A program made the translations under genes and the position numbers. A stretch of DNA of 64,000 nt from Halarcobacter sp. (GTDB taxonomy: Bacteria; Campylobacterota; Campylobacteria; Campylobacterales; Arcobacteraceae): contig OY781089.1 in the NCBI GenBank assembly GCA_963676565.1, forward strand, positions 2,144,399 to 2,208,398. The letters are read 5' to 3'. The notes beneath the pieces are model-generated. The model saw only the letters and a list, made by a program, of their open reading frames with translations, had not been told where the DNA came from and made no database searches. This document shows, in pieces, positions 1,876 to 21,980 of the stretch. Positions within the stretch are counted from its first letter, which is position 1. Each line of letters begins with the position of its first letter.

Positions 1876-1928
1876 ATAAAACCTTTTTTTTAATTATCTA
1901 ATATTATAAAAAAATTATTTAAAAGTAA

Positions 1929-2651: not shown

Positions 2652-2678
2652 TTAATTAATCCTTTTAACTATAAATAT

Positions 2679-4175
2679 TTATTTTTCATATGGTAATGAG
2701 ATTTTTATTGTTGTACCATCTTCGTTGTTTTTTGCAGTAATTATTCCATTTAAATGGATGTTTACTATTATTTTACTCATGTAAAGTCCTAATCCTACAC
2801 CATGCTTTTGCTCTTTTGTTGAAAAATATGGTTCAAAAACTTGATGGATAATATCCTCATCAATACCTTTTGCATTGTCTGAAATTTCAATTATGAGTTT
2901 ATCATCAATTTGATTTTGATTTATTTTTATTCTTTTATTTGAAATCTTGTTTTTATTAAATGCCTCTATTGAATTTTTAATTATATTAATCAAAACATCA
3001 ATTAATTCATTTTTCAAAGATTTAAATACTAAATTTTTATTTATCTTTTTTTCAAAAATAATATCTTTTATATCATATTCTAAAGCAATCTTATCCCTTA
3101 CTTCATTAAGAACATCATCAAAAGTCATTTCCTCTTTTTTGTTTTTTAATTGAAGAAATTTTTGAAAGCTTTCAATTGTTTTAGAAAGTTTAACAGCTTC
3201 ATCATGGATTGTTTCCAATGTTGAAATAGTATCTTTTTTTGAAGGAGTTTCATCCATTGAGTAATTTATCTCAAGTTTTTGTGCTTGAATTGAGATAAAA
3301 TTTAAGGGTTGTCTCCATTCATGGGATAACATTTGCAAAGTCTCTGTCATAATTGCAAGTTTTGATTTTTGTAGTAGTAGTTTATCTTTTTGTTCAATCT
3401 CATCTTTTGCTTTTGAGATTTCAGATTTTAATAAAGATGAAGAATCATTTAAATTTATCTCTTTTGTAATATCAAACATTAAAAAAGTATATCCTGTTAC
3501 GTCACCATATTTATTGTAAATTGGCTTTGCTCGTAAATTTATCCAGAAGGTTGAACCATCTTTTTTTAGTTTTTTTAGTTTTCCATTCCATTCTTGAAAA
3601 TTTTCAAGATTTGATAGAATATTTTTATAAATAATTAAATCTGAATCTGTATGGGCTAAAGATGAGAAAGATTTTCCAACTAATTCTTTTTCGTCATATC
3701 CTGAAAGTTTACAAAATGCAGAACTTGCTTTTGTTATATGTCCATGTAAATCTGTATGCATCGATATTACATAATCATTTAAAATCTCATCATCTGAGAT
3801 TTGAGAGGTGATATCTTTTGTATTTATTACAAAAAGATTGTTGTTTAACATTGTAGAAATTGTGATTTTTAAATAAACTCTTTTTTTATCTTTTCTTTTA
3901 CAAGCTAAATCAATTTCTGCTTTGTATTTTTTACTTTTGTCAGTGTTTTTTAAAAGATTAAAAAAAGACTCTTTGAATTTATCTTCCATCAATGAAGAGA
4001 AACTTGTACTTAATAATTCTTCTTTTGAAAAACCAAGTATTGGCATAAATGCATTATTTATATAAATAAATTTGGTATTTTCATCAATGATTCCAATACC
4101 ATCCCAAGAATTATTTATTATCTCTTGTAATTCTAAATTATTTCTTTTAAGCTTTTCAATGTCTTGCTTAGTCAA
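2679..4175 (-). CDS. PAS-PAS sensor histidine kinase (orphan)
   Basis: Two PAS-like repeats, H-box SHEWRQPL, N-box KNSIEA, DNAKGI, FEPYFSTK, GVGLGL. Confidence 0.88.
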   Translation of the reverse strand: MTKQDIEKLKRNNLELQEIINNSWDGIGIIDENTKFIYINNAFMPILGFSKEELLSTSFSSLMEDKFKESFFNLLKNTDKSKKYKAEIDLACKRKDKKRVYLKITISTMLNNNLFVINTKDITSQISDDEILNDYVISMHTDLHGHITKASSAFCKLSGYDEKELVGKSFSSLAHTDSDLIIYKNILSNLENFQEWNGKLKKLKKDGSTFWINLRAKPIYNKYGDVTGYTFLMFDITKEINLNDSSSLLKSEISKAKDEIEQKDKLLLQKSKLAIMTETLQMLSHEWRQPLNFISIQAQKLEINYSMDETPSKKDTISTLETIHDEAVKLSKTIESFQKFLQLKNKKEEMTFDDVLNEVRDKIALEYDIKDIIFEKKINKNLVFKSLKNELIDVLINIIKNSIEAFNKNKISNKRIKINQNQIDDKLIIEISDNAKGIDEDIIHQVFEPYFSTKEQKHGVGLGLYMSKIIVNIHLNGIITAKNNEDGTTIKISLPYEK

Positions 4176-4246
4176 TATAAAACCTTATTTTTAGTGACAA
4201 TATTATAATATAAAATCTTTAAACAAGAGTATGAAAGAGTTATTAT

Positions 4247-6949: not shown

Positions 6950-6991
6950 CAACTAAGATATAAATTTTTTTTATTTTTTAATAATTTTATT

Positions 6992-7020
6992 TTGACATTT
7001 CTATTTTATTCTGATAGAAT
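6992..7020 (+). promoter_or_regulatory. sigma70-type promoter of the response regulator gene
   Basis: TTGACA (6992-6997), 17-bp spacer, TAGAAT (7015-7020) preceded by extended -10 TG. Confidence 0.65.
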
Positions 7021-7035
7021 TTAAAAAAAATTATT

Positions 7036-7746
7036 ATGAAAGAGGGCATTATGATTAAGACCTTAAAAAACATAAGAAAGCTTTACAACGCAAAATTACT
7101 ATTTGTAAGTAACGACGATAATGTAAAAAACACAATTGAAAATGAATTTGATGAATATTTTAAAGAGTTAACATTAGTTAAAAGTTATGATGAAGCAATT
7201 TCATTAATTAATGAAAATAGTTATGATATGGTTATTATTGATACTGATATAGCAGGAAAAGACTTTGAAGAAGTATGTTCTAATATAAGTGCTGCAGCAC
7301 CAAATTTACCTAAAATAGTTATTTCTGGTGATGATAACAACGAAAATATTGTTACAGCAATAAATAATAGTGCTTATACATTTTTAACTAAACCTTTAAG
7401 ACCTAAGGGTGTAAAACTAGCTGTAATTATGTGTTTAAATCAAACTAAAAGAGGTGACAAAATCGAATTCCAACATGGAATTTATTTTGATGAATATAGA
7501 GATCAGTTTTATAAAGCAGGAGGAACACTTATTGACTTCACTAGGCTTGAAAAAGGTTTCTTAAAACTACTAATTGCTAAAAAAGGTGAAGTTGTTGATT
7601 ATGATACAATTAAAAATGTAGTTTGGAAAGGTAAAAACATGTCTATTTACACTATGAGAAATATTGTAAATAAAGTTAGACAAAAAACCTATTATGAGAT
7701 TGTTAGAAATCACTCTAATAAAGGTTATGTAATTGATGAAGTTTAA
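7036..7746 (+). CDS. Response regulator with OmpR-type winged-helix output (start may be the ATG at 7051)
   Basis: Receiver (IIDTD, ISG, LTKP) plus a C-terminal wHTH (MRNIVNKVRQK...NKGY). Confidence 0.8.
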   Translation: MKEGIMIKTLKNIRKLYNAKLLFVSNDDNVKNTIENEFDEYFKELTLVKSYDEAISLINENSYDMVIIDTDIAGKDFEEVCSNISAAAPNLPKIVISGDDNNENIVTAINNSAYTFLTKPLRPKGVKLAVIMCLNQTKRGDKIEFQHGIYFDEYRDQFYKAGGTLIDFTRLEKGFLKLLIAKKGEVVDYDTIKNVVWKGKNMSIYTMRNIVNKVRQKTYYEIVRNHSNKGYVIDEV

Positions 7747-7788
7747 TTTTCACTTCATCTTTTTTTACTATAATATGTAAAGACTAGC

Positions 7789-7983
7789 ATGGAAGAGATA
7801 ATAGTATCGAAAGAAGAATTGATTGATAAGTTTGAAAATCAAGAGATTACTGATACAGGAAGAGGCTGGATGATGGGTGATGAAGAGATTGAAATAATTG
7901 CTCTTCATGATGTTGATCCAAAGTTTCTCCAAGATGTTACTAATGCTAAATTTTACAAATTAATACCAAAAAAGGGGAAATAA
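7789..7983 (+). CDS. Hypothetical 64-aa acidic protein
   Basis: ATG ORF after a TATAAT-like box. Host-like codon usage, 3-bp gap to the next gene. Confidence 0.65.
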   Translation: MEEIIVSKEELIDKFENQEITDTGRGWMMGDEEIEIIALHDVDPKFLQDVTNAKFYKLIPKKGK

Positions 7984-7986
7984 CTA

Positions 7987-8247
7987 ATGTCACATTGCCC
8001 ATACTGCGGAAAAAAAATCGCTATGAGTAAAGCCTTCTGTTCTAGAGGTTGCAAAGAAAACTATTTTCAATTAATTGCAATTCAAGTTCCGAAACCATTT
8101 TTAAAAAGAATTTTTGTTTTTAGTACACAAGAAGAGCGAGAAGCTGAAATTGAAAACTTTGCAAATAGACATGGTTGGAGAATTGATTTACTGCAAAAGA
8201 AAATTGATGAATTAGCAGTAGAATATGGCTACGTCGAATCAAACTAA
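7987..8247 (+). CDS. Small Zn-ribbon protein (DUF2116-like)
   Basis: N-terminal HCPYCGKKI...FCSRGC motif. Confidence 0.7.
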   Translation: MSHCPYCGKKIAMSKAFCSRGCKENYFQLIAIQVPKPFLKRIFVFSTQEEREAEIENFANRHGWRIDLLQKKIDELAVEYGYVESN

Positions 8248-9523
8248 CAGTAATTTTTCTGCTGAAGATTCTATTCTTAAACGATCCACACTTTTATATT
8301 TAGAAGATGATGAAACTATAGCTCAAGAAACTTTTTCTATTTTTGAAAAGGTATTTGGTAAAGTTTATTTTGGAAAAGATGGACAAGAGGGAATCAATCT
8401 ATATAATAATCATAAAAATGAAATTGATATAATTTTAACAGATATAAACATGCCAAATATTAATGGTTTGGAGTTTATGAGTGAAGTTAGAAAAGTAGAT
8501 TATGAAATACCAATTTTAATAATTACTGCCTTTAATGATGTAAATATATTAACAAAGGCAATTAAACTAAATGTAGCTGACTATATCGTAAAACCAATGC
8601 AGTTAAACTCAACTTTAAAAATTTTAAATAAGATTTTAACAAATAGATTTAATCAAAAACTTGTTTTAAAGCAACAAAATGAATTGCAGATTTATAAAGA
8701 GATTCTTGATAGAGAAAACTTAGTTAGTGAAACAGATTTAAAAGGTTATATTACATATGCAAATGATATTTTTTGTAAAGTGTCAGGTTATACTAAAGAA
8801 GAATTAATAGGTGCAAACCATAATATAGTAAGACATCCTGATGTTTCACCAAAAGTATATGAACAAATGTGGAAAACTATCCAAAGTGGTAATATTTGGA
8901 AAGGTAAAATCAAAAATATAGCAAAAGATGGTTCAGCTTATTATGTCAAAGCAACAGTATTTCCTGTTTTAGATGAAGATGGAAATATTGAAAAGTATAT
9001 GGCAAGTAGATTCGTTGTTACTGAAGACGAGGAAGAGAAACATAAACTTAAAAAGTTTATTATGAAACAGAAATCTGACCAAATTAAGCATGAAAAACAA
9101 TTAAAAGAAGAATTTGACGATGCAGTACATTTTGCAAAAATGCAAAATGATGAAAAGATGGCTAAATTTATTCATGAACTAAATGAACAAATAAAAAATT
9201 TAAGAGTAAAAAATGCAGATAATAAAGGTAGAATTATATCTTTAGAGAAAAAACTAAAAGATGCATTGGATAGAAATGATGACTTACAAAAAGGTTATCA
9301 AGGTAGAATAGAAAAACTTCATAAAACGTCTGTGCTAGCAGTCGAGAATTATCAAAAAATCAAAAAAAGAAGTGATATTATTAATGATAAATATGAAAAA
9401 GCTCAAGAAGGGATAAAAACTTTTCAAGGCTATATTGATGAATACAGAGTTAAAATAAATAACTTAGAAGATGTTATCAATGCCTATGAAGAAAAGTTTG
9501 GAAAACTAGGTCGTCTTAAATAG
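8225..9523 (+). CDS. REC-PAS protein with a long C-terminal coiled coil
   Basis: Receiver (YLEDD, LTDINMP, ITA, VKP), PAS GANHNIVRHPDV...MW, then about 150 aa of heptad-rich K/E/Q sequence with no kinase boxes. Confidence 0.8.
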   Translation: MATSNQTNSNFSAEDSILKRSTLLYLEDDETIAQETFSIFEKVFGKVYFGKDGQEGINLYNNHKNEIDIILTDINMPNINGLEFMSEVRKVDYEIPILIITAFNDVNILTKAIKLNVADYIVKPMQLNSTLKILNKILTNRFNQKLVLKQQNELQIYKEILDRENLVSETDLKGYITYANDIFCKVSGYTKEELIGANHNIVRHPDVSPKVYEQMWKTIQSGNIWKGKIKNIAKDGSAYYVKATVFPVLDEDGNIEKYMASRFVVTEDEEEKHKLKKFIMKQKSDQIKHEKQLKEEFDDAVHFAKMQNDEKMAKFIHELNEQIKNLRVKNADNKGRIISLEKKLKDALDRNDDLQKGYQGRIEKLHKTSVLAVENYQKIKKRSDIINDKYEKAQEGIKTFQGYIDEYRVKINNLEDVINAYEEKFGKLGRLK

Positions 9524-10334
9524 TTTTCTTCTTTTTATTCATTATAAAAAGAACTACGATACTTAAAATAGCAAAAATTCCAGATATTAACATCCCCATT
9601 GTTAGCCAACCACCATATAAAAATCCAAGTTGAATGTCAGGTTGTCTAAAAAATTCAGCAACTATTCTTGCTATTGAATATAAGACTCCATACATAATAG
9701 CTAATTGTCCATCAAAGTTTTTTCTTTTTCTATATATATAAAGTATGACAAATACCACAATACCTTCAAGAAAACCTTCATACAGTTGAGAAGGGTGCCT
9801 TAAAACACCATCAACATAAATTCCCCATGGAACATCAGTTACTCTACCTACAATCTCTTTATTGACAAAGTTTCCAATTCTTCCAAGAACATATCCAGCA
9901 CTGATACCTATAACAGCAATATCAGCTAAAAACCAAAAAGAAACTTTATGTTTTCTACAAAATAATAATGAAGCTATTAAAAAACCAATAAAAGCTCCAT
10001 GATAACTCATACCTGAGATTCCAACAAATTCACCATTTAAAAAAGGATTAAATATTTGCCAAGGGTGGCTTAAGTAGTACATAGCTTGGGGATCATAAAA
10101 TATTATGTAACCAAGTCTAGCGCCTAAAATAACACCAATTTCTGCCCACCAAATATATGAGTCAAAAAGTTCATTTGAGATTGGAAGTTTATCTTTTTTA
10201 ATTGTCCATTTAGCTACAAATATAGCAGAAAGTAGGGCAAGGGCATACATAATACCATACCAGTGTACTGCTATTGACCCTAGCTTAAAAGCTACAGGGT
10301 CAAAGTTAGAGTAAATATTCTGCCAAAATTCCAT
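9516..10334 (-). CDS. lgt: Prolipoprotein diacylglyceryl transferase
   Basis: HWYGIMY, LGARLGY, GMSYHG, GRIGNF, RHPSQLYE. Confidence 0.96.
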   Translation of the reverse strand: MEFWQNIYSNFDPVAFKLGSIAVHWYGIMYALALLSAIFVAKWTIKKDKLPISNELFDSYIWWAEIGVILGARLGYIIFYDPQAMYYLSHPWQIFNPFLNGEFVGISGMSYHGAFIGFLIASLLFCRKHKVSFWFLADIAVIGISAGYVLGRIGNFVNKEIVGRVTDVPWGIYVDGVLRHPSQLYEGFLEGIVVFVILYIYRKRKNFDGQLAIMYGVLYSIARIVAEFFRQPDIQLGFLYGGWLTMGMLISGIFAILSIVVLFIMNKKKKTI

Positions 10335-11636
10335 TTAGTCTTCTAAGGCGTCTGCTATTAGTTCAATTGGATTTTTAAATGTAACATCAACACCAGATAC
10401 ATGAAGTGAGTTAGATACCTGAATTCTACAGGCACTACATTCAGCACTTACAATCTCTGCTTTTGTTTCTTTAATCATAGCAGCTTTTGGAAGTCCAGCA
10501 GCCCTTGCTAATTCATACTTTTCTGATTGCATAGTAACCCCACCAAAACCACAACATCTATTAGGATCACTCATTTCAGTCATTACATAATTTTGGCTTA
10601 ATAAATTTCTTGGTTCTTGCCAAACACCTTGAACTTTTCTTGCATGACATGCATCATGGTAAGTTACAGTTGTATCAAATTTTTTACTTGAGTTAGCAAG
10701 TAATTGTTTTAAATTTGTATTGTCTTCAAGCCATTTCGTTGCCATAAATACTTTTTTAGAGATTTTAGAAGCTCTTTCTTTCCATTCTGGCTGGTCATGT
10801 AAAAAGTGCTCCCAATCTTGATTAATCATAGCACTACAAGTAGCTTCAGGAATAACAATAGCATCAACTTCATCAAGCCATTGTTCGAAATATTCAATAT
10901 TATGTTTTATTAAATAATCAACTGTATCAAAATCTCCAGTAAAATAAGCTGGTGCTCCACAACATAATTGTTTTTTAGGTATAAAAATATCAACCCCAAC
11001 TTTTTTAAGAATCTTAACTAAACCATCACCTGTTTTTGTATAAGCATAATTACTCATACATCCAATAAAAATAGCAACTCTTTGTTTTTTCTCTTCGTTA
11101 TTTGTATCTTTATTAACTTTAATATTTTCAGGGTATTTATTTAAAAAACTTTTTCTATCAGCATAAGTTAATGCTCTTTCTTTTTTAATTAAAGGAACTG
11201 AAAATCTTAAAAATGAAGTTTTCTTTTCTGTATCTTTTTTTATTGCACATGATTGAAATACCCAACCTAAAGTTGCAAGTAAATCCATGGTTTTTCTATG
11301 TCTTAATAACCAAAAGAATGCTCTTTTATACCAAGCAATTCCATATTTCTTTCCAATATCATATCTAACTTGCTCAATAATCATATCAGTAGGTAAATCA
11401 TTTGGACAAACATCAACGCAGTTTGTACATAAAAAACATGATTCAAAGATATCTTTAGCATTTCTATCAAGTTCTAATTCATCCCTTTTATATGCACCTA
11501 ATAAATCAATGAAACCCCTTGGACTGGTCGTTTCATCTTGATTAATATTAAAAATTGTACATACAGGTTTACATTTTCCACATTTTACACAATCATCACT
11601 AATTTGTGTATAATCAAATTTTTCCATTGCATTCAT
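10335..11636 (-). CDS. (Fe-S)-binding oxidoreductase subunit (GlcF/GlpC-like: two 4Fe-4S motifs plus two CCG domains)
   Basis: CVKCGKCKPVC and CFLCTNCVDVCP; CCGAP and CCGFGG; YHDACH. Confidence 0.85.
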   Translation of the reverse strand: MNAMEKFDYTQISDDCVKCGKCKPVCTIFNINQDETTSPRGFIDLLGAYKRDELELDRNAKDIFESCFLCTNCVDVCPNDLPTDMIIEQVRYDIGKKYGIAWYKRAFFWLLRHRKTMDLLATLGWVFQSCAIKKDTEKKTSFLRFSVPLIKKERALTYADRKSFLNKYPENIKVNKDTNNEEKKQRVAIFIGCMSNYAYTKTGDGLVKILKKVGVDIFIPKKQLCCGAPAYFTGDFDTVDYLIKHNIEYFEQWLDEVDAIVIPEATCSAMINQDWEHFLHDQPEWKERASKISKKVFMATKWLEDNTNLKQLLANSSKKFDTTVTYHDACHARKVQGVWQEPRNLLSQNYVMTEMSDPNRCCGFGGVTMQSEKYELARAAGLPKAAMIKETKAEIVSAECSACRIQVSNSLHVSGVDVTFKNPIELIADALED

Positions 11637-13003
11637 TATATTGTTTTACTAAACCTTCTTTTATTTTCAGGAACTCTTTTTAAGTATGCATCAAAAGGCA
11701 TACAAATATTTCTTATTAACATTGTTCCTGTAGGAGAAACTGTTATTTTTTCATCATTGATTGATACTAATTCAGCTTCTACAAACTCATCAAGTAATGG
11801 TAAATCATTTTTAAAATATTCTTTAAAATCTATATCAAATTTTTCTTCAACTCTTTTTATATTTAAAGAGAAATTACTCATTAACTCCATGATAACAAAT
11901 TGTCTTAATATATCATCTTCACTTAATCTATAACCTTTAAAAATAGGAAGCTCGTCATTATCAATTGCTGCTTCATACTGTTTTAAATCTTTATAGTTTT
12001 GTGCATAGTAATCAACTCCATTTCCTATGGAGGTAACACCAATACCTATTAAATCAGCTCCACCTTTAGTTGTATAACCCTGGAAGTTTCTATGAAGCTC
12101 ACCTTTTTCAATAGCTTTAAACAGCTCATCTTCAGGTTTTGCAAAGTGATCCATCCCAACCATTTTATATCCATTGGTTGTGAAAAAATCAATAGTATCT
12201 TTTAATATCTCAAGTTTTTCCGATGGCGGTGCAAAAGTAGTTTCATCAAATTTTCTCATAGTTTTCATAAGCCAAGGAACATGTGCATAATTAAATACTG
12301 CTAATCTATCTGGATTAAGTTTTATAATCTCTTTAACTGTTTCATTAAATGTTTTTCTATTTTGGTGTGGAAGACCATAAATTAAATCAATATTTATTGA
12401 CTTAATACCTGCTTCTCTAGCTATATTCATAACGTTTTGAGTTGTTTCATATGGTTGGATTCTATGAATTGTTTTTTGTACTTGTTCATTTAAATCTTGA
12501 ACACCAAATGAAAGTCTATTAAATCCACCTTCTTTTAGTACATCCATATGTTCTTTTGTAAAATATCTTGGGTCTACTTCACATGAAATTTCAGCGTCAT
12601 CACTAAAATTTGGAAAAGTTTCTTTAAGCATTTTAATAACTTCATTTAATTGCTCTGGAGAAAAATATGTTGGTGTACCACCACCAAAATGCATTTGAGT
12701 AACTTTTCTATTTGTATTTAAATGTTTTTTTAAAATATTTAGTTCTTTTTGTAAGTACTCTAAATATCTAACTTTTTTATCCTCTTTTGAGGTAAATATT
12801 ACATTACACCCACAAAAATAACAGGCGCTTCTACAAAATGGGAGATGGATATATAAAGATAAATCTCTATCATCACTTTGTTTACTATAATATTCTATTA
12901 AATCTTCTTTTGAAAACTCTTCACTAAACTCTGGTGCAGTTGGATATGATGTATATCTAGGCCCTGGTTTTGAATACTTTTCAAATTTTTTAAAATCTAT
13001 CAT
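11636..13003 (-). CDS. hemN: Oxygen-independent coproporphyrinogen III oxidase
   Basis: GPRYTSYPTA, HLPFCRSACYFCGC, HFGGGTPT, GMDHFA, HRNFQGYTT. Confidence 0.96.
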   Translation of the reverse strand: MIDFKKFEKYSKPGPRYTSYPTAPEFSEEFSKEDLIEYYSKQSDDRDLSLYIHLPFCRSACYFCGCNVIFTSKEDKKVRYLEYLQKELNILKKHLNTNRKVTQMHFGGGTPTYFSPEQLNEVIKMLKETFPNFSDDAEISCEVDPRYFTKEHMDVLKEGGFNRLSFGVQDLNEQVQKTIHRIQPYETTQNVMNIAREAGIKSINIDLIYGLPHQNRKTFNETVKEIIKLNPDRLAVFNYAHVPWLMKTMRKFDETTFAPPSEKLEILKDTIDFFTTNGYKMVGMDHFAKPEDELFKAIEKGELHRNFQGYTTKGGADLIGIGVTSIGNGVDYYAQNYKDLKQYEAAIDNDELPIFKGYRLSEDDILRQFVIMELMSNFSLNIKRVEEKFDIDFKEYFKNDLPLLDEFVEAELVSINDEKITVSPTGTMLIRNICMPFDAYLKRVPENKRRFSKTI

Positions 13004-13018
13004 ATTTTCTTCTTATAT

Positions 13019-13945
13019 CTATTTGTTTATTTGTCTACTTAACCAAACCATAACACCTTTTTGTGCATGTAATCTATTTTCAGCTTCTTCAAAAACTAAG
13101 CTTTCTTCACCCTCAATAACATCTTCAGATACTTCATAACCTCTATATGCAGGAAGACAATGTAAAAATATTGCATTTGATGCACCTAATTTCATCATCT
13201 CTTTATCTACAATATATCCATCAAAATCTTTTACTCTTTTCTCTTTTTCATCTTCTTGACCCATTGATACCCAAGTGTCTGTTGTAATAACTGTAGCACC
13301 TTTACAAGCCTCTTTAGGATCATTTCCAATAATAATTTTTGCACCAGATTCTTTTGCAAAGTTTAGTGCATCATCTAAAATATTTTGATTTACTTCATAA
13401 CCTTTTGGTGTAGCAATTCTAAGTTCAAAACCAAGTTTTGAAGCTAACATTAGCCAAGAATGTGCAAGATTGTTTCCATCACCAACATAAGAGACAACTA
13501 AGTCTTTATCTAACCCAGCTTCTTGAATTGTTAAATAATCAGCCATTAATTGTACAGGGTGATATTCATCTGTAAGTCCATTGATTACTGGAACTTTAGA
13601 ATATTTTGCAAACTCTTCAATTTTTGATTGTGCAAATGTTCTAATCATTACCATATCAACCATACTTGATACAACTCTTGAAGTATCACTCATAGGTTCA
13701 CCACGACCTAATTGAATATCATTTGAAGATAAAAATAGACCAACTCCACCTAATTGATAAATACCAACTTCAAAACTTACTCTAGTTCTAGTACTACTTT
13801 TTTCAAAAATCATTCCAAGAGTATTTTTTGGCATATAGTCATTGAAAACTTTATTTTTAGTCTCTTTTTTAATCTTTGCAGCTAGCTCTAAAATCTCTAA
13901 TATTTCTTCTTTAGTATAATCTCTAAGTGTTAAAAAATGTCTCAT
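13019..13945 (-). CDS. argF: Ornithine carbamoyltransferase
   Basis: [29 protein letters not shown]. Confidence 0.96.
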
Positions 13946-14014
13946 TTAAGTATCCTTCTTTTGTAAAAACGACTATTATATATTAAATCTGTTTACTTAT
14001 AACTTAACGGTTAT

Positions 14015-14545
14015 TTACTTTTTTTTCGGCATTTGGGCTAAATACTCTTTATATTTTAAAGAATCAAGTTTCTCAACTTTATTCATAACTTCATTGTTCA
14101 TTTGCTCTTTATATTTAGAGATTTTTTCTCTAATATTTGAATCACTAGAACCTATAATTTGTGATGCTAAAATCCCAGCATTTTTTGCTCCATTAATTGC
14201 AACAGTTGCAACAGGAACTCCTCCAGGCATTTGAACAATTGATAATAATGAATCCATACCTTCTAAGTTTGAACCTCGAACAGGAACTCCTATAACAGGA
14301 AGTGGTGTTAAGGCTGCAACCATACCTGGTAAATGAGCGGCACCTCCAGCTCCTGCAATAATAACTTTTAATCCTCTTTCAACAGCACTTGTAGAATATT
14401 CAACTAGTCTATCAGGAGTTCTGTGAGCTGATACAATACTTACTTCATATTCAATACCAAACTCTTCACACATTTGTACTGCTGCACTCATAACTGGTAG
14501 GTCAGAGTCACTTCCCATAATAATTCCAACTAACGGTTTAGACAT
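14015..14545 (-). CDS. purE: N5-CAIR mutase
   Basis: [36 protein letters not shown]. Confidence 0.96.
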
Positions 14546-15695
14546 ATTTCTTACTTCCTTTAATTTTTAAAATATCTTTTGCTTTCATAGCTTTTTCTAA
14601 TGCTTTGTTTATATCATCATCTAAAACTGTAACATGACCCATTTTTCTAAATGGTTTTGTATAAGATTTTCCATAAAAGTGAAATGATAATTCTGGAATC
14701 TCTAAAGCATCATGAATTCCATGGATAAAAGGTTCACCCTCATAGTGCTCTTCCCCTAAAAGATTTATCATAACTGCCGGAGAAATTAATTTTGTAGAAC
14801 CTAAAGGTAAATTTGTAACTGCTCTAATGATTTGCTCAAACTGTGATGTCGCACAAGCTTCAACAGTATAGTGTCCAGAGTTATGAGGTCTTGGTGCTAT
14901 TTCATTAACTAAAATCTTTCCATCTTTTGTTAAAAATAGTTCAACTCCAAAAATACCAATACCATTTAATGCTTCAATAGATTTTTTTGATATCTCAATG
15001 GCTTTTTGTTCAATTTCAAATGGGATTCTAGCAGGAGCTAATACACTATCGCAAATATTAACCCTTTCATCAAATAGCATTTCAACAACAGGATAGCATT
15101 TAATCTCACCTTCAAAATTTCTAGCAACAATAATTGCTAACTCTTTATCAATGTTAACTAGCTCTTCGATAAATGATTCATCTCTAATTGCTTTAGTGCT
15201 AACCTCTTCTTGTGATTTAAGCATTTGAACACCTTTCCCATCATATCCACCAAGCTTAGCTTTTTGAATAACAGGAAAACCAAATGAGCCTAAATCTTCA
15301 TCATTTCTAACATCTTTATACATAGGAACAGGAATGCCTTTTTCATCTAGAAGCTTCTTTTGTTCATATTTATTTTGTATCAATTCCATAACATATGGTG
15401 ATGGATGAATTTTATGTCCATGATTATATAACTCTTTTAAAATGCTCATATCAACATGCTCAAGCTCAAAGGTTGTAACATCATTTTCTTGAACTAGTTG
15501 TTCAAGTTTTTCTTTATCATAAAATCCACCAATAATATGTTTATCAGAAACTTGAGCGGCAGGACAGTTAAAAGTAGGGTCTAAAATAGTTACATGAAAG
15601 CCCATTTTTTTAGCTTTTTGAGACATTATTTTACCTAATTGTCCCCCACCAATAATACCAACTTTTAAATTTGAATAATTAAAATCTTTGTTCAT
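14538..15695 (-). CDS. purK: N5-CAIR synthetase (ATP-grasp)
   Basis: [33 protein letters not shown]. Confidence 0.95.
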
Positions 15696-15713
15696 ATATC
15701 TCTTCTTTATCTC

Positions 15714-16004
15714 TTAAATTAGTAACATCACGTCACTTACGATGCATTTACCACCATATTTTTTTATAAATTTACTAATAGAATCTTCAATATTTAGATA
15801 TTTAGATTCTTCACATACTGTAAAAACATAATTATTGCTAAATACATCAGTTACATCATCAGCAGTTTTAAGTCCATGACCACCTGCACCTTGAATATCT
15901 TTAATTATAGTATAACCATTGATATCATTACTTTTAAATAAATCAATTAATCTGTTTACATAAACTGACTCAATTATTATTTCAACCTTTTTCATCTCCC
16001 GCAT
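15714..16004 (-). CDS. sbtB: P-II-like regulator, SbtB-type
   Basis: MKKVEIII...GYTIIKDIQGAGGHG P-II pattern, 96 aa, 6 bp downstream of the SbtA-family gene. Confidence 0.75.
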   Translation of the reverse strand: MREMKKVEIIIESVYVNRLIDLFKSNDINGYTIIKDIQGAGGHGLKTADDVTDVFSNNYVFTVCEESKYLNIEDSISKFIKKYGGKCIVSDVMLLI

Positions 16005-16010
16005 AAATCC

Positions 16011-16991
16011 TTACCCCCAAATTAAGTTTATAAAATAATAATACAACGGAATACCAAGTGATATATTAAACGGGAAAGTTATAGCTAAACTTAATGGTAA
16101 ATATATACCTGGATTTGCTTGAGGTACTGATAATCTCATTGCCGCTGGAACAGCAATATAAGAAGCACTACCACTTAATAATGCTAGTAAAAATGCATCC
16201 CCTTTTGATAAAGAGAAATAATATCCAAGTGCTATAGCAACACTTGCATTTATAATTGGCATTAATAAAGCAAAAATGATTAAAAACATACCAACTTTTT
16301 TTAGTTCGTAAATTTTTCTTGCAGCAACTAATCCCATATCTAATAGGAAAAATGCTAGAAAACCTTTAAATAAAGTTCCAAATAAAGGCTCCATTGAATG
16401 CCAACCTTTTTCCCCTGTAGTAATCCCAATAATTAAAGCACCAATTAGTAAAAAAACTGAAGGGTTTAAAAAAGACTCTTTTAAGATCTCTTTCCAATTT
16501 GTTTTTTCATCTTTATCTTCATCAGAACCTTTTGCAAATAAAGCTGCAAATACAAGTCCAATTACAATAGCTGGTGACTCCATTAATGTCATAGCTGCAA
16601 CCATATGTCCACCGTAGTCTATACCAATAGTTTGTAAATATGTAATACCCGTAATAAATGTAACAGCACTAATTGAACCATAAGTTGCAGCAATTGCAAC
16701 GGAGTTATAGGTATCTAGTTTTGTTCTTAATATAAAATAACTATACACTGGAACAATAGATGCCATAAGCACTGCAAGCATCAAAGACTTAAAAACATAT
16801 ATGTCTAAACCACTTTTAGATAATTCATATCCTCCATGCAAACCTATTGCTATTAATAAATAAAGGGAAAATAGTTTTGGAAGAGGTTGAGGAATTGTTA
16901 ATTCTGATTTTAAAAAGACTGCAAGCATCCCTAAAAAAAAGAATAAAATTGGTGGATTTAGTATATTTTGTAATATTAAATCAATATTCAT
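16011..16991 (-). CDS. sbtA: Sodium-dependent bicarbonate transporter, SbtA family
   Basis: About 10 TM segments; LLIAIGLHGG, AATYGSISAVTF, MESPAIVIG, FLLDMG, SASYIAVPAAMR, ITFPFNI motifs. Confidence 0.88.
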   Translation of the reverse strand: MNIDLILQNILNPPILFFFLGMLAVFLKSELTIPQPLPKLFSLYLLIAIGLHGGYELSKSGLDIYVFKSLMLAVLMASIVPVYSYFILRTKLDTYNSVAIAATYGSISAVTFITGITYLQTIGIDYGGHMVAAMTLMESPAIVIGLVFAALFAKGSDEDKDEKTNWKEILKESFLNPSVFLLIGALIIGITTGEKGWHSMEPLFGTLFKGFLAFFLLDMGLVAARKIYELKKVGMFLIIFALLMPIINASVAIALGYYFSLSKGDAFLLALLSGSASYIAVPAAMRLSVPQANPGIYLPLSLAITFPFNISLGIPLYYYFINLIWG

Positions 16992-17110
16992 AAATTAAAT
17001 TCCTAATAAATTTTCTTTTGTAAAATTGATATTATATCTCAAAAAAGCTTTTTCTACTTTAAAGATAATCAAAAAAATTAGAAAAAATTATTTTTATTTC
17101 TTTAGTTTCG

Positions 17111-17131
17111 ATTTTGTGACATTTTCGTGAC
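17111..17131. promoter_or_regulatory. Candidate transcription-factor site: GTGAC direct repeat with 11-bp period upstream of nrdD
   Basis: ATTTTGTGAC ATTTTCGTGAC; GTGAC at 17116 and 17127. Confidence 0.35.
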
Positions 17132-17191
17132 TTTTTATATTATTATTTTTTAAGTAGAAAGGCTCTAAAATTTTGATTGTAAAGGATAGGA

Positions 17192-19303
17192 ATGATAGAA
17201 AATATTTTAAAAAGAGATGGCAATTATGAGCCATTTGAAGAGTATAAAATAAAAGATGCTATTAAAAAAGCATTTAAAAGTGTTCATACAACATATGATT
17301 CTATAATTTATTTAAATGTAATAGAACAATTAAGCAAAAAAAGAGTGATTGCCGTTGAAGATATTCAAGATTTAATTGAGTCAGAACTTTTTAAAGCTAG
17401 ATATTTTGAAGTATTAAAATCATTTATGCTTTATAGACATATGCACAAATTACAAAGAGAACAAGTTTTAGGATTAAACGAAGATACTACATATATCAAT
17501 TCAACACAAACAATTGAAGAGTATATTAATGGAACAGATTGGAGAATTAAAGCAAATTCAAATACAGGTTATTCCCATGCAGGACTTATAAACAATAGTG
17601 CAGGGAAGGTGATTGCTAATTATTGGCTAGATAAAATCTACTCAAAAGAAGAGGGCTATGCCCATAGAAATGCTGATTATCATATTCATGACCTGGATTG
17701 TTTAAGCGGATATTGTGCTGGATGGAGCTTAAGAGTTTTATTGGATGAAGGTTTTAATGGAGTTAGAGGTAGGGTTGAGTCATGTGCGCCAAACCATTTT
17801 AGAGAAGCTTTAGGTCAAATGGCAAATTTTCTAGGAATCTTACAAAGTGAATGGGCTGGAGCTCAAGCATTTTCATCATTTGATACTTACTTAGCACCTT
17901 ATGTATTTAAGGATAAATTATCTTTTAGTGAAGTAAAAAAGAATATTAGAAGTTTTGTATATAATTTAAATGTTCCTGCACGTTGGGGACAAAGCCCTTT
18001 TACTAATATTACAATTGACTGGACAGTTCCAAGGGATTTAAAAGATCAAATCCCAACAAGAAACCAAGAACATTTATTTAAAAATATAGATGATGAAGAG
18101 TTATTGAAAAAAGCTAAAGATAAAGGGCATGAGTTTTTAACTGAGCTTACATATAAAGATTTCCAAAAACAAATGGATATGATTAATAAAGCATATTATG
18201 AGGTTATGACAGAAGGGGATAAAACAGGACAACCATTTACTTTCCCAATCCCTACTGTAAATTTAACAGAGGATTTTGATTGGTATGGTGAAAATACTGA
18301 TTTATTATTTGAAAATACTGCAAAGATAGGAAGTTCATATTTTCAAAACTTTATAGGAAGTCAATATACTAAAGATGAAAATGGAAAATTAATACCAAAT
18401 GATAATGCTTATAAACCAGGTCATGTTAGATCTATGTGTTGTAGATTACAACTTGATTTAAGAGAACTTCTAAAAAGAGGTGGTGGTTTATTTGGTAGTG
18501 CTGAGATGACAGGAAGTATTGGTGTTGTAACAATCAACATGGCAAGACTTGGATATCTTTATAAAGGTGATAAAGATTCTTTGTTTACTAGACTTGAAGA
18601 ATTAATGGATTTAGCTAAATCAACTTTAGAGAAAAAAAGAGTTTTTGTTAACGATTTATATGAAAGGGGATTATTCCCTTATACAAAAAGATATTTACCT
18701 GGATTTAATAACCATTTTTCAACAATTGGTGTAAATGGTATCAATGAGATGATAATTAATTTTAGTGAAAAAGAGTTTGATATCTCAAAAAATGAGGGGA
18801 TTTTATTTGCCAATGAAATTTTAGATTTTATGAGAGATAAAATGGCAGATTATCAAGAAGAAACAGGAAACTTATACAATCTTGAGGCAACACCTGCTGA
18901 AGGAACAACTTATAGATTTGCAAAAGAGGATAAGAAAAGATACCAAGATATCTATCAAGCGGGATATGGTAAAAATATTTTCTATACAAATTCTTCACAA
19001 CTTCCTGTTGATTATACAGATGATGTTTTTCAAGCTTTAGATTTACAAGATGATTTACAGGGCAAATATACTGGTGGAACAGTTCTTCACTTATATATGA
19101 AAGAGAGAATCAGTTCAATTGAAGCTTGTAGAAAATTAGTAAGAAATGTTATCTCAAATTATACTTTACCATATATTACTATTACTCCAGTTTTCTCTAT
19201 TTGTCCTAAACATGGATATATAAATGGTGAATATGAGTATTGTCCAATTTGTGACCAAGAAATTTTAGATGAGGAGTTAAATAATGAAAAGCTTAGAGCC
19301 TGA
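17192..19303 (+). CDS. nrdD: Class III (anaerobic) ribonucleoside-triphosphate reductase, large part lacking the glycyl-radical loop
   Basis: ATP cone (ILKRDG...KIKDAI), YCAGWS, finger loop SMCCRL, NLEATPAE, YTGGTVLH, Zn site CPKHG...CPIC. Ends without an R-V-x-G-Y motif. Confidence 0.93.
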   Translation: MIENILKRDGNYEPFEEYKIKDAIKKAFKSVHTTYDSIIYLNVIEQLSKKRVIAVEDIQDLIESELFKARYFEVLKSFMLYRHMHKLQREQVLGLNEDTTYINSTQTIEEYINGTDWRIKANSNTGYSHAGLINNSAGKVIANYWLDKIYSKEEGYAHRNADYHIHDLDCLSGYCAGWSLRVLLDEGFNGVRGRVESCAPNHFREALGQMANFLGILQSEWAGAQAFSSFDTYLAPYVFKDKLSFSEVKKNIRSFVYNLNVPARWGQSPFTNITIDWTVPRDLKDQIPTRNQEHLFKNIDDEELLKKAKDKGHEFLTELTYKDFQKQMDMINKAYYEVMTEGDKTGQPFTFPIPTVNLTEDFDWYGENTDLLFENTAKIGSSYFQNFIGSQYTKDENGKLIPNDNAYKPGHVRSMCCRLQLDLRELLKRGGGLFGSAEMTGSIGVVTINMARLGYLYKGDKDSLFTRLEELMDLAKSTLEKKRVFVNDLYERGLFPYTKRYLPGFNNHFSTIGVNGINEMIINFSEKEFDISKNEGILFANEILDFMRDKMADYQEETGNLYNLEATPAEGTTYRFAKEDKKRYQDIYQAGYGKNIFYTNSSQLPVDYTDDVFQALDLQDDLQGKYTGGTVLHLYMKERISSIEACRKLVRNVISNYTLPYITITPVFSICPKHGYINGEYEYCPICDQEILDEELNNEKLRA

Positions 19304-19442
19304 GAAATTAAAAGAGAAAAGAACAAGATGTATTGTTTACACAAGAGTTATGGGGTATCACAGACCAGTTGAGAGTTTTAATATTGGTAAAAAAGGTGAA
19401 CATTCTCAAAGAGTAAAATTCATTGAAAAAGATAATTTATAA
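19284..19442 (+). CDS. 52-aa NrdD C-terminal glycyl-radical domain encoded as a separate ORF (absent from the ORF track)
   Basis: My translation: MKSLEPEKLKEKRTRCIVYTRVMGYHRPVESFNIGKKGEHSQRVKFIEKDNL*. SD GAGGAG at 19271-19276. Contains the RVMGY motif. Confidence 0.9.
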   Translation: MKSLEPEKLKEKRTRCIVYTRVMGYHRPVESFNIGKKGEHSQRVKFIEKDNL

Positions 19443-20094
19443 TATAACACCGTTTACAACGGTTGATTATAAAGATCATTTATCTTGTATTGTATGGTTT
19501 AATTCATGCAATATGAGATGTAAATATTGTTATAACCCTGATATTGTTAATTCAAAATCAGGGCTTTATACAATTGAGGATTTATGTATTTTTTTAACGA
19601 AAAGGGTAGGTTTATTAGATGGTGTTGTATTAAGTGGTGGTGAAGCTTCATTGCATGATTTAAAATATGTTTGTAAATGTATTGCAGATTTAGGTTTTAA
19701 AATTAAACTTGATACAAATGGCTCAAATCCTAATATGATAAAAACTCTTTTAGATCAAAAACTATTAGATTTTGTAGCAATTGATTTTAAATCAACAAAA
19801 GATAAATTTTATGAGATTACAAAATCTAATTATTACAATAAATTTTTAGAATCACTACATCTACTTAAAAACTCAGCTATTGAGTATGAAGTAAGAACAA
19901 CTTTACATGAAGATTTATTAGATGAGGATGATATAAATGAGATGCAAACAGTTTTGATTGAAAATGGATATCATCAAAACTATTACATCCAAAAATTTTT
20001 AGAGACTGAAAATTTAAGTAATTTAAAATCATCGGAAAAACTATTTGATAAAAGTAAACTTCTTACTAATCTAAATATAGTTTGGAGAAATTAA
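19423..20094 (+). CDS. nrdG: Anaerobic RNR activating radical SAM enzyme
   Basis: CNMRCKYC, LDGVVLSGGE, KLDTNG, YEVRTT; TTG start overlapping the small nrdD ORF. Confidence 0.92.
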   Translation: MKKIIYNITPFTTVDYKDHLSCIVWFNSCNMRCKYCYNPDIVNSKSGLYTIEDLCIFLTKRVGLLDGVVLSGGEASLHDLKYVCKCIADLGFKIKLDTNGSNPNMIKTLLDQKLLDFVAIDFKSTKDKFYEITKSNYYNKFLESLHLLKNSAIEYEVRTTLHEDLLDEDDINEMQTVLIENGYHQNYYIQKFLETENLSNLKSSEKLFDKSKLLTNLNIVWRN

Positions 20095-20095
20095 T

Positions 20096-20776
20096 CTACT
20101 TATTTATAATATAACCTTGTCCTGAAATATTTTTTATTAACTCTTTGTTTGTTTTAGCTCTAAGTCTTTTTACAAATGTTCTTAATCTTTCATCTGTAAC
20201 ACCATCTTCATCCCAAAGGGTAGATTTAATATTATTTGAAGAAGTGATGTTATTTCTATCACCAAGGAGTAAAGATATAAACTTCTTTTCCCTTTTTGTA
20301 ATATTGACTAGTTTTTCATTTTCAAAAAGATTATTTGTATTTGTATCAAATGAAAAATCTTTATTTAAACATACTATTCTGTTTTTATTTAACTTATTTG
20401 CAATAAAAATCAAATATTCTAAAACCTCTTCAGGGTCAAATGGTTTTATGAAATATTTTGTAATACCAATATCAATAGCTTTTAATAATTTATCTTTATC
20501 AGAAAAGGCACTAAGAACAATAATAGGAATATCCTCATTCATTGTTCTAATTTCTTTTGTCATCTCTAATCCATCAAGATTTGGCATCATTATATCAGTT
20601 ATTACAATATCCGGATTGATATTTTTAAACTTTTCAAGACCTTCAAGACCATCACTTGCAAGGGAAAAAGAATAAAAGTAATCTGATAGGGCATCCTTTA
20701 AAAGTTTTGAGATATTTACCTCATCTTCCACAAATAGTATTTTTAATTCTTTTAGTATTGATTCATCATTACTCAT
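20096..20776 (-). CDS. OmpR-family response regulator
   Basis: FVEDE, ITDIMMP, LSA, IKP; wHTH LRTFVKRLRAK...GQGY. Confidence 0.9.
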   Translation of the reverse strand: MSNDESILKELKILFVEDEVNISKLLKDALSDYFYSFSLASDGLEGLEKFKNINPDIVITDIMMPNLDGLEMTKEIRTMNEDIPIIVLSAFSDKDKLLKAIDIGITKYFIKPFDPEEVLEYLIFIANKLNKNRIVCLNKDFSFDTNTNNLFENEKLVNITKREKKFISLLLGDRNNITSSNNIKSTLWDEDGVTDERLRTFVKRLRAKTNKELIKNISGQGYIINK

Positions 20777-21980
20777 TATTTTCTCCTAATGGTATTTTAA
20801 TTGTAAATTTTAAACCATTATTTATATTCTCAACTCTTATTGTACCATCTAAACTCTTTTCAATAATCATTTTTGACATAAATAAACCAAGCCCTGTTCC
20901 ATTACTTTGATGTTTTGTAGTAAAATAAGGTTCAAAGATTTTATCAAGTGAATTTTCTTTTGCTCCACCAGCGTTATCACAAAATTGTAATACTGCATAG
21001 TTTTCCTCTTTTTTTACCAAAATAGTTACTTTTTTATCTTTTATCTCATTTACTTTAAAGGCTTCAATTGAGTTTTGTATTAAGTTAATTATCACTTGTG
21101 ATAGTTCGTTTAATACTCCAAAAACTTCTATCTCTTCAAAATCTGTTTGAATATTTAAACTCTCTTTTTGAACAAGTTTTCTTGTAATTAATAATGAATC
21201 ATTTATCGCATTTGTTAAGAAAAATTTCTCTTTTGGTTTATTTGGATTAAAAAAGTTAGAAAAATCATCAATTGTTTGTGACATGTTTTCAATAATTCCA
21301 AGTGAATCTTTATAATATAAATCAAGTTTTTCTAAATCACCTTTTTTGGCAGTTTTTTTAATATTGAACATAGTAAGACTAAGTTCTGTTAATGGTTGCC
21401 TCCACTGATGGGCTATATTTGCAAGCATTTGTCCTAAACTTGCCATTCTAGATTGCCAGAAAAGCATTTTTTGTTTCTCTTTATTTTTGGCAATTTCTTC
21501 ATTTACCCTATGTTCTAAGGTTTGGTTTAGCTCAATTAATTGTGCTGTTTGCTCTTTTACTCTTTGCTCTAGAGTTTTATTTAAAGTTAATAGTTCTTTA
21601 TCTTTTTTCTCTAATGTTTTTTTTAATTCTACTTCTTTTGTAACATCATATCTAATAGCAATAAACTCTTTTATCTCATCCTTTTCATCAAGGATTGGAG
21701 TTATTGTTGTATTTAAATAAACAGTTGACCCATCTTTGCATTTATTTTTAACTGTTGTCTTATATGACTTTTTATCTAAAATTGTTGTCCATAGTTTTTC
21801 AAAATCTTCTTCTGGAACTTCTGGATGTCTAACAATATTGTGATTAGCTCCTAGAAGTTCTTCCTTTGAAAAACCAGAGATTCTACAAAACTCATCATTT
21901 ACAAAGGTTATTACACCATTAATATCTGTTTTAGAAACTACATTGGAATTTTCAATAGCTTCTTGATATGTTTGACCCAT
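20769..21980 (-). CDS. Cytoplasmic PAS sensor histidine kinase
   Basis: PAS GANHNIVRHPEV, coiled coil, H-box AHQWRQPL, DNAGG, GTGLGL; no TM segment. Confidence 0.9.
   Translation of the reverse strand: MGQTYQEAIENSNVVSKTDINGVITFVNDEFCRISGFSKEELLGANHNIVRHPEVPEEDFEKLWTTILDKKSYKTTVKNKCKDGSTVYLNTTITPILDEKDEIKEFIAIRYDVTKEVELKKTLEKKDKELLTLNKTLEQRVKEQTAQLIELNQTLEHRVNEEIAKNKEKQKMLFWQSRMASLGQMLANIAHQWRQPLTELSLTMFNIKKTAKKGDLEKLDLYYKDSLGIIENMSQTIDDFSNFFNPNKPKEKFFLTNAINDSLLITRKLVQKESLNIQTDFEEIEVFGVLNELSQVIINLIQNSIEAFKVNEIKDKKVTILVKKEENYAVLQFCDNAGGAKENSLDKIFEPYFTTKHQSNGTGLGLFMSKMIIEKSLDGTIRVENINNGLKFTIKIPLGENNE

Follow-up and report, generated by a model that had tools for sequence, protein, structure and literature searches.

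The cyanobacterial sbtA-sbtB operon (Synechocystis slr1512-slr1513; structures 7cye and 7egk) is one of the closest described counterparts of a block of four genes, sbtA, a PII-like gene, purK and purE, which we analyzed in a 64-kb stretch of the genome of a Halarcobacter sp. (contig OY781089.1, positions 2,144,399 to 2,208,398), and this whole stretch is referred to below as the window. Both systems encode a permease of the same Pfam family, built as a two-fold inverted repeat, and in both the permease gene is followed immediately 3′ by a gene encoding a PII-like protein, with a PII fold and a T-loop. The window permease is shorter than Synechocystis SbtA (326 versus 374 aa) and is without the central loop, and the window PII-like protein lacks the CGPxGC hairpin of some cyanobacterial SbtB proteins, with a sequence match to cyanobacterial SbtB of only E 0.15. 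In addition, the predicted operon in the window runs on with purK-purE, an extension that the cyanobacterial sbtA-sbtB operon does not have in the descriptions consulted. A second counterpart is CPII of Thiomonas intermedia (5d4l-5ds7), the best match of the window PII-like protein in the Protein Data Bank (PDB) by sequence (E 1e-4) and a top structural match (TM-score up to 0.77), which is encoded in loci for the acquisition of dissolved inorganic carbon (DIC) and binds bicarbonate, and this binding alters the affinity of CPII for nucleotides. However, the two proteins share 23% identity, and whereas CPII comes from the alpha-carboxysome loci of a Calvin-Benson-Bassham (CBB) autotroph, the window protein follows an SbtA-type permease, in a window without carboxysome genes.

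In Campylobacterota, Aquificota and Nitrospirota, genes for carboxylases are reported commonly to have DIC transporter and carbonic anhydrase genes located with them (PMC13147460, 2026). This survey of autotrophs using the reductive tricarboxylic acid (rTCA) cycle places SbtA-type transporters beside consumers of CO2 or HCO3-, partly in the same organisms (Campylobacterales), but it concerns rTCA enzymes in autotrophs, makes no mention of purK or purE, and has heterotrophic Arcobacteraceae outside its scope; in these heterotrophs, unlike the surveyed cases, the transporter genes are joined to purKE alone. In S. aureus and B. subtilis, DIC uptake by MpsAB/DAB-type systems feeds the HCO3--dependent anabolic enzymes of a non-autotroph at atmospheric CO2 (PMC6689103), and PurK is explicitly named among these enzymes, as one of the bicarbonate consumers behind the dependence of heterotrophs on carbonic anhydrase or MpsAB; these transporters belong to an unrelated family, work by vectorial CO2 hydration, and have no reported genetic link to purK. 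Ordinary purE-purK pairs (E. coli purEK; H. bivalviorum purK-purE) encode the same enzymes from adjacent, translationally coupled genes, and H. bivalviorum and three other relatives have the promoter region and the downstream argF-hemN genes in common with the window, which differs from such pairs in having two extra genes of predicted bicarbonate import between promoter and purK. A likeness in function is offered by the mammalian mTORC1-SLC4A7 axis, where bicarbonate import is raised for de novo nucleotide synthesis (cited in PMC10912719), although the proteins are eukaryotic and unrelated, control is translational, and there is no gene clustering.

We found no published description of a linkage between sbtAB and purKE in the searchable full-text literature, in agreement with a preceding reading of the DNA made without database searches (the sequence-only reading), which had known of none. 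The sbtAB-purKE arrangement is a new operon variant made from known parts, and is consistent with a published principle. We think it fairly probable that it represents a four-gene transcription unit of the Campylobacterales, in which an SbtA importer and a PII-like regulator lie between the promoter and purK-purE, coupling HCO3- import to the bicarbonate-dependent purine step. Comparative genomics gives good support to the core claim of the sequence-only reading, the linkage of a predicted bicarbonate uptake module with the purine synthesis step that depends on bicarbonate, and the block makes sense as a putative adaptation to low CO2.

Gene content and protein identities

The window has a G+C content of ~28%, and at the protein level it shares 92-98% identity with Arcobacter (Halarcobacter) arenosus. 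The features under study are the following:

17031..17040, minus strand: putative promoter with the extended -10 box GAGATATAAT (TATAAT at 17036-17031), 39 nt 5′ of the sbtA start codon, read from sequence
16011..16991, minus strand: sbtA-like gene, encoding an SbtA-family (Sbt_1) permease of a short clade, a predicted Na+/HCO3- symporter (326 aa)
15714..16004, minus strand: gene encoding a PII-like regulator, SbtB by position and SbtB/CPII-like (96 aa)
14538..15695, minus strand: purK, encoding N5-carboxyaminoimidazole ribonucleotide (N5-CAIR) synthetase, which uses ATP, HCO3- and aminoimidazole ribonucleotide (AIR) (385 aa)
14015..14545, minus strand: purE, encoding a class I N5-CAIR mutase (176 aa)
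13019..13945, minus strand: argF, the downstream neighbor, encoding ornithine carbamoyltransferase (above cut-off for NF001986 and TIGR00658)

The open reading frame (ORF) list and the sequence agree on the spacing first read for these four co-directional genes, with gaps of 6 bp between sbtA and the PII-like gene (16005-16010) and 18 bp between the PII-like gene and purK (15696-15713), and an 8-bp overlap of purK and purE (14538-14545, ATGTCTAA). The layout is also operon-like as proposed, with tight spacing and no terminator-like site within the block. Upstream of sbtA lies the divergent nrdD, and downstream of purE the order is argF, 69 bp after purE, then hemN, then a gene encoding a CCG/Fe-S oxidoreductase. 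Homologue searches across the 64-kb window identified no second sbtA or purK, no second purE (a point raised by the sequence-only reading), and no gene encoding DabA, DabB, an AraC/GyrI regulator, biotin carboxylase, isocitrate dehydrogenase (ICDH) or SulP.

Pfam and NCBIfam profiles bear out the identities first assigned to all four proteins (SbtA, PII-like, PurK and PurE). PurK scores above the cut-offs of NF004679 (428 bits; cut-off 326) and TIGR01161 (417.9 bits; cut-off 318.4), and contains the pre-ATP-grasp, ATP-grasp and PurK_C domains (PF22660, PF02222 and PF17769, respectively). PurE scores 222.6 bits against TIGR01162 (cut-off 149.6), contains the AGGAAHLPG loop in its translation, and matches class I PurE proteins in the PDB at E 1e-71 to 1e-40, versus 3.8e-14 for the class II protein of T. 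denticola (3rg8). Since PurE is of class I, it depends on N5-CAIR supplied by PurK. The presence of PurK has been interpreted as a marker of adaptation to low CO2, and cyanobacterial purK mutants require high CO2 (PMC10880623).

The permease matches PF05982 (Sbt_1) at full length (residues 13-321 aligned to positions 1-307 of the 308-position profile; E 1.8e-121; 405.7 bits, cut-off 27), and no NCBIfam model matches it. Its alignment to Synechocystis SbtA (7cye, E 4.2e-29) falls into two stretches, query 10-153 and 158-318, which cover both inverted repeats, with ~45 residues of the central cytoplasmic loop missing. Docking and mutagenesis led to Ser114, Tyr140, Ser324 and Ser327 being proposed as HCO3- ligands of the Synechocystis protein (PMC8352866); Ser114 and Ser324 are retained in the window protein as S108 and S277, crossover serines that are invariant in 63 homologues down to 34% identity. 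The name SbtA holds at the level of the Sbt_1 family, but the protein is of a shorter clade, shares ~25-30% identity with Synechocystis SbtA, and keeps only two of the four docked ligands. Carbonic-anhydrase-free E. coli is able to grow at 0.04% CO2 when supplied with Sbt proteins from Thiomicrospira pelophila, which also increase its internal DIC, and DIC limitation induces one of these proteins 280-fold (PMC12628692). Judging from this proteobacterial Sbt activity and from the gene neighborhoods of the clade described below, bicarbonate is the most likely substrate of the permease.

The PII-like protein matches PF00543 (P-II) at E 3.6e-13, and its AlphaFold model (pLDDT 81, from 34 homologues) has the layout beta-alpha-beta / T-loop / beta-alpha-beta (E4-12, H13-25, E32-37, disordered 40-52, E57-65, H66-83 and E86-91). 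The best Foldseek matches to this model, at TM-scores of 0.70-0.77 and above GlnK, are SbtB from the SbtA-SbtB complex (7egk_B) and bicarbonate-bound CPII (5d4o). Both the T-loop and the core are strongly conserved. The C-terminal redox hairpin CGPxGC is not present in the protein, the end of which reads ...GGKCIVSDVMLLI; since this motif is kept only in some SbtB homologues (PMC8352866), its absence does not exclude membership of the SbtB/CPII group. The name SbtB, also given in the sequence-only reading, is apt in that the protein is PII-like and encoded directly 3′ of the permease gene, whereas by sequence it is nearer to the carboxysome-associated CPII (E 1e-4 in the PDB search) than to cyanobacterial SbtB (E 0.15). 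Both SbtB and CPII bind adenine nucleotides, according to structure titles and one further source (10.1101/762807), and by analogy with these homologues the window protein may bind an adenine nucleotide, cAMP or bicarbonate and may inhibit the transporter.

Conservation of the block and company of its permease clade

Named genomes containing the block were located by exact-protein look-ups, which showed the order sbtA, PII-like gene, purK, purE in five Arcobacteraceae and three Sulfurimonadaceae genomes, in eight distinct flanking contexts:

A. arenosus: flanks identical to those of the window
A. cloacae: moaA upstream, rpsO downstream
A. roscoffensis: gene for an EAL protein upstream, rpsO downstream
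Halarcobacter mediterraneus: sulfide dehydrogenase upstream, yaaD downstream
Poseidonibacter lekithochrous: two-component genes on either side
Sulfurimonas aquatica: within a DIC island
'Sulfurimonas sp. MAG313': biotin carboxylase and a 213-aa gene upstream
Sulfuricurvum metagenome-assembled genome (MAG): ICDH and a SulP transporter a few genes upstream

The occurrence of sbtA beside purK therefore extends beyond a single strain, with the block present in at least eight named genomes; an adjacency confined to one strain would have spoken against the sequence-only reading. A metagenome scan for close relatives gave ~20 contigs with enough flank to judge, and in 9 of these purK lies directly 3′ of the PII-like gene, while two rearranged contigs keep the adjacency, one as purK-purE-sbtA (L111) and one with sbtA-sbtB convergent with purK-purE (L113). 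A tightly packed purK-purE-sbtA-sbtB locus is also present in a Pseudomonadales MAG (L059), the single such case among the 80 distant loci listed below, and the identity of its proteins to those of the window (40-62%) indicates that there was no recent transfer of the whole cassette between these lineages. With at least eight named genomes from two families in eight contexts, and 11 of the ~20 metagenome contigs, the adjacency exceeds chance; the linkage is conserved within Campylobacterales and rare outside the order. Since several arrangements all keep the genes adjacent, we argue for selection on proximity. The sequence-only reading had described a low-CO2 adaptation cassette of a heterotroph that possibly allows growth in air, the latter a speculative suggestion; the block is indeed present in heterotrophic Arcobacteraceae, but it is not a heterotroph speciality, because chemolithoautotrophic Sulfurimonadaceae also carry it, in S. 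aquatica beside DabAB and carboxylases.

The wider company of the permease was surveyed in a collection scan with one genome per species, where the matches listed comprise 80 loci at 45-82% identity, with no Arcobacteraceae among them, from Sulfurovaceae, Aquificota, many cyanobacteria, Bacteroidota, Planctomycetota and others; the counts that follow refer to these listed loci. A PII-like gene lies directly 3′ of the permease gene in 61 of the 80. Comparison of the two nearest genes on each side with Pfam showed beta-carbonic anhydrase downstream in 15 loci, the RuBisCO large subunit in 2 and ChpXY in 1, with carboxysome shell (bacterial microcompartment, BMC) proteins upstream in 7 and LysR regulators in 4. 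In a Sulfurovaceae MAG, the sbtA/PII-like pair is flanked by genes for ICDH and biotin carboxylase. The bicarbonate logic of the block is strengthened because the clade elsewhere adjoins genes for beta-carbonic anhydrase, carboxysomes, RuBisCO, DabAB, biotin carboxylase and ICDH.

The S. aquatica locus (L125; CP046072, locus 1-12345) contains DabA, a 246-aa gene, DabB and an AraC/GyrI-like regulator divergent from sbtA, and, from sbtA on, the PII-like gene, purK, purE, biotin carboxylase, a 216-aa protein, ferredoxin and subunits of a 2-oxoacid:ferredoxin oxidoreductase. The 216-aa protein has no Pfam match and is 64% identical to a 213-aa protein that also follows biotin carboxylase in another locus (L088). 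An AraC-type regulator with a GyrI-like effector-binding domain occurs repeatedly beside sbtA in Sulfurovaceae and Sulfurimonadaceae loci (L001, 614-1528; L002, 8416-8958; L088, 2791-3666; L125, 3990-4865), and is a candidate DIC-responsive regulator. One metagenome contig (L107) contains two sbtA/PII-like pairs (103-1333 and 5049-6287) ~3.7 kb apart, with SbtA copies 78-79% identical to the window SbtA and no purKE. The short clade is also present, together with a CPII-like partner, in many cyanobacteria among the loci listed, including Nostoc, Calothrix, Microcoleus, Tychonema and others (L009-L040) and Synechococcus/Cyanobium (L049-L070), where the protein is 50-61% identical to that of the window and its gene often adjoins beta-carbonic anhydrase or carboxysome shell genes; in the case compared, Cyanobium sp. 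(L058), the PII partner is CPII-like, not SbtB7001-like. We met no discussion of a second, short-clade sbtA/PII pair in cyanobacteria in the literature consulted.

Recent horizontal transfer of the cassette was also considered, and there is no clear signal either way: G+C content tracks the host (~30% in Arcobacteraceae and 35-38% in Sulfurimonadaceae), and identity between the families (SbtA 79-84%, PurK 71-85%) is about equal to that within them. Nothing points to a recent transfer, the proteins being highly conserved in themselves, but an ancient transfer may have occurred.

Relatives without sbtAB and transcription signals

Look-ups from PurK homologues identified four close relatives that have the synteny of the window but are without sbtA and the PII-like gene, namely H. 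bivalviorum CP031217, Halarcobacter sp. CP182355, Arcobacter sp. CECT 8983 and a MAG. The common synteny consists of a two-component system, nrdG, a 52-aa ORF and nrdD, then the divergent purK-purE-argF-hemN-CCG. In these relatives PurK is 86-87% and PurE 76-78% identical to the window proteins, and the flanking NrdD, ArgF and HemN are 87-88%, 88-91% and 85-87% identical, respectively. As PurK and PurE are as similar as the flanking proteins, purKE is orthologous in place and was not replaced in the window, and sbtAB has been cleanly inserted or deleted. Of the two, a loss by the H. bivalviorum group appears somewhat more parsimonious than a gain by A. arenosus, since the same four-gene order is present in other genera and in Sulfurimonadaceae.

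This comparison carries over to the promoter. A TATAAT box is located 35-45 nt 5′ of the sbtA start in five Arcobacteraceae, at matching distance in A. cloacae, A. roscoffensis, H. mediterraneus and L091, with the remaining leader not conserved. The nrdD-purK spacer of the four sbtAB-less relatives aligns with the nrdD-sbtA spacer of the window, in a block that includes the -10 box (AAAAAGC...AGATATAATAT), and the same promoter region therefore lies before purK in these relatives and before sbtA in the window. Together with the gap of 18 bp between the PII-like gene and purK, this shared region argues that transcription would reach purKE through sbtAB; the spacer comparison is the strongest available support for this, and is comparative in kind. 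The sbtB-purK spacer measures 18-25 bp in Arcobacteraceae versus 84-265 bp in Sulfurimonadaceae-type loci, and the fusion of sbtAB with purKE is tightest in Arcobacteraceae. No intrinsic terminator was found in the intergenic spacers or after purE, and the few terminator-like matches are all inside coding sequence. In low-depth metatranscriptome contigs from a 95-99% identical relative, all four genes are covered and the purK-purE and purE-argF junctions are spanned, the latter by a contig corresponding to 13704-14127.

The sequence-only reading had also drawn argF into the bicarbonate logic, which the wider comparison does not sustain: argF-hemN synteny is present without sbtAB in the four relatives, and absent where the cassette is located elsewhere, with the argF adjacency kept only in A. 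arenosus and the sbtAB-less relatives. This adjacency is ordinary local synteny, pre-existing or independent of sbtAB. The 69-bp purE-argF spacer contains no terminator-like site and has its own TATAAT at 13980-13975, and argF is possibly reached by read-through from purE.

A riboswitch or other known RNA element before sbtA or purK was sought with Rfam at permissive thresholds, with nothing found in window positions 9000-21000, and the same search of seven related loci gave nothing except one tRNA. The leaders of sbtA and argF (17016-17040 and 13956-13980, both minus strand) each contain TATAAT, then 5-6 nt, then the 13-nt sequence TTTTACAAAAGAA; the 25-nt pattern of TATAAT, 6 nt and TTTTACAAAAGAA has five matches in the window at up to three mismatches, versus ~1 expected. 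As a general sbtA leader motif TTTTACAAAAGAA was rejected, being not conserved upstream of sbtA in other genera.

Two further observations concern nrdD. The block ACTTAAAAAATAATAAT...GTCAC-N6-GTCAC (window 17116-17131) is conserved in nrdD-sbtA and nrdD-purK spacers (L082, L128 and L129), and a plus-strand GTGACA-16 nt-TATTAT in the spacer has a promoter-like score; the ACTTAAAAAATAATAAT block thus probably represents the promoter of the divergent nrdD rather than an operator of pur or sbt genes. The nrdD gene itself (703 aa; with a small ORF, 17192-19442, plus strand) stops right after the zinc-ribbon, and the glycyl-radical motif YTRVMGYHRPV is encoded on a separate 52-aa ORF (19284-19442), in the +1 frame with a 20-nt overlap with the nrdD stop, directly 5′ of an nrdG-like activase gene. 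The same split is present in A. arenosus, H. bivalviorum, Halarcobacter sp., Arcobacter sp. CECT 8983 and a MAG (L081-L083 and L128-L131), and this conservation excludes an error of sequencing; either a programmed frameshift or an anaerobic ribonucleotide reductase truly made in two pieces could account for the split.

Competing explanations and biological meaning

If bicarbonate import and the purine step are coupled as we propose, transcription would start at the TATAAT ~39 nt 5′ of sbtA and continue through sbtA, the PII-like gene, purK and purE, with purK and purE translationally coupled through their 8-bp overlap. SbtA would raise cytoplasmic bicarbonate, PurK would use bicarbonate and ATP to form N5-CAIR, and class I PurE would convert N5-CAIR to carboxyaminoimidazole ribonucleotide (CAIR). 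The PII-like trimer would probably plug the transporter via its T-loop, set by its occupancy with adenine nucleotide and possibly with bicarbonate. Co-expression would then link bicarbonate import to a purine step that is limiting when CO2/HCO3- is scarce, and carbamoyl-phosphate synthetase, acetyl-CoA carboxylase and pyruvate carboxylase would draw on the imported bicarbonate as well.

Several points weigh against this coupling. From the sequences and their comparison we infer which substrate is transported, that the PII-like protein has a regulatory role, that the genes form a single transcript, and that there is a low-CO2 phenotype with CO2-dependent expression. Among the four docked HCO3- ligands proposed for the Synechocystis protein, two are substituted in the window permease (Tyr140 to Met and Ser327 to Ala). 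The sbtA-sbtB and sbtB-purK junctions are unspanned in the low-depth metatranscriptome contigs, where DNA carry-over is possible. Neither in 79 of the 80 distant SbtA loci listed nor in Sulfurovaceae, despite an SbtA 80-82% identical to that of the window, is purKE adjacent, and 9 of the ~20 informative metagenome contigs have no purKE nearby; in addition, four close relatives evidently live without sbtAB. Finally, in five Sulfurimonadaceae-type loci a conserved element, TATAGTTAACAA-N5-TTAGGTTAAAAT, which holds the inverted repeat TTAAC-N11-GTTAA, lies 35-45 nt 5′ of purK (L100, 6416-6444; L110, 6480-6508; L112, 1207-1235; L125, 6382-6410; L126, 6323-6351). This element is absent from the window, and has no other copy in the 1.4 Mb of sequence covered; as a candidate promoter plus operator, it suggests that purK probably has its own regulated promoter in these loci.

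The missing purKE in distant loci, in Sulfurovaceae and on the metagenome contigs, the motif before purK with the independent transcription that it suggests, and the absence of sbtAB from relatives whose purKE is otherwise unchanged would all fit a purely historical adjacency, inherited from an Arcobacteraceae/Sulfurimonadaceae ancestor without any coupling, with a transporter for general or autotrophic DIC supply and purKE incidental to it. We regard this as unlikely, as the block persists while both of its flanks vary across eight contexts, the rearranged contigs L111 and L113 keep the genes together, and in the distant Pseudomonadales MAG these four genes likewise stand together, though in a different order. 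Furthermore, the Arcobacteraceae spacer is down to 18-25 bp downstream of a shared promoter, and the neighbors of the clade elsewhere are repeatedly carboxylases or carbonic anhydrases. A further reading, which we consider doubtful and give only a small chance, is that sbtAB is a facultative two-gene plug-in, gained or lost exactly between the purK promoter and purK, that its presence, with that of purK, may be a main determinant of whether members of the Campylobacterales need elevated CO2, and that the PII-like protein integrates the levels of adenine nucleotides and bicarbonate and so matches import to purine demand.

That the permease moves a different solute or small anion, such as a compound related to the purine pathway, with the Sbt_1 name misleading for the short clade, is in our view very unlikely. 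The distance from Synechocystis SbtA, the missing cytoplasmic loop and the two substituted ligands would allow it, as would the lack of an NCBIfam match and of any member identified as assayed among those sharing at least 45% identity with the window protein. Yet clade members occur in carboxysome, beta-carbonic anhydrase, RuBisCO, ChpXY and DabAB neighborhoods, both crossover serines are invariant, non-cyanobacterial Sbt-family proteins take up DIC (PMC12628692), and the partner protein resembles the bicarbonate-binding CPII. Least probable of all is a coupling through adenine nucleotides, in which the PII-like protein is a sensor of ATP, ADP and AMP co-made with purine enzymes irrespective of bicarbonate supply: this would suit the nucleotide binding of SbtB and CPII and the highly conserved T-loop and core, but the only step linked is the bicarbonate-dependent one (purK and its partner purE, with no other pur gene), the PII-like gene accompanies the permease gene (61 of the 80 distant loci listed) and not pur genes, and relatives retain purKE without it.

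Heterotrophs need bicarbonate for few anabolic carboxylations, and the step that limits growth in air and the route of bicarbonate supply are known for few species (carbonic anhydrase or MpsAB). In the coupling of import to purine synthesis that we favor, evolution would have tied a bicarbonate importer to one consumer, PurK, which points to AIR carboxylation as a sensitive step, and the pattern of a DIC transporter beside a carboxylase would extend from autotrophic carbon fixation to a biosynthetic enzyme shared by heterotrophs. A. arenosus, with sbtAB, and H. bivalviorum, without it at the identical locus, offer a natural comparison of how growth depends on CO2 and pH, and the group to which they belong has food-borne and animal-associated Arcobacter species among its members. 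If the plug-in reading were true, the locus would provide a genetic explanation of the non-capnophilic growth in air of Arcobacter-type bacteria as compared with Campylobacter.

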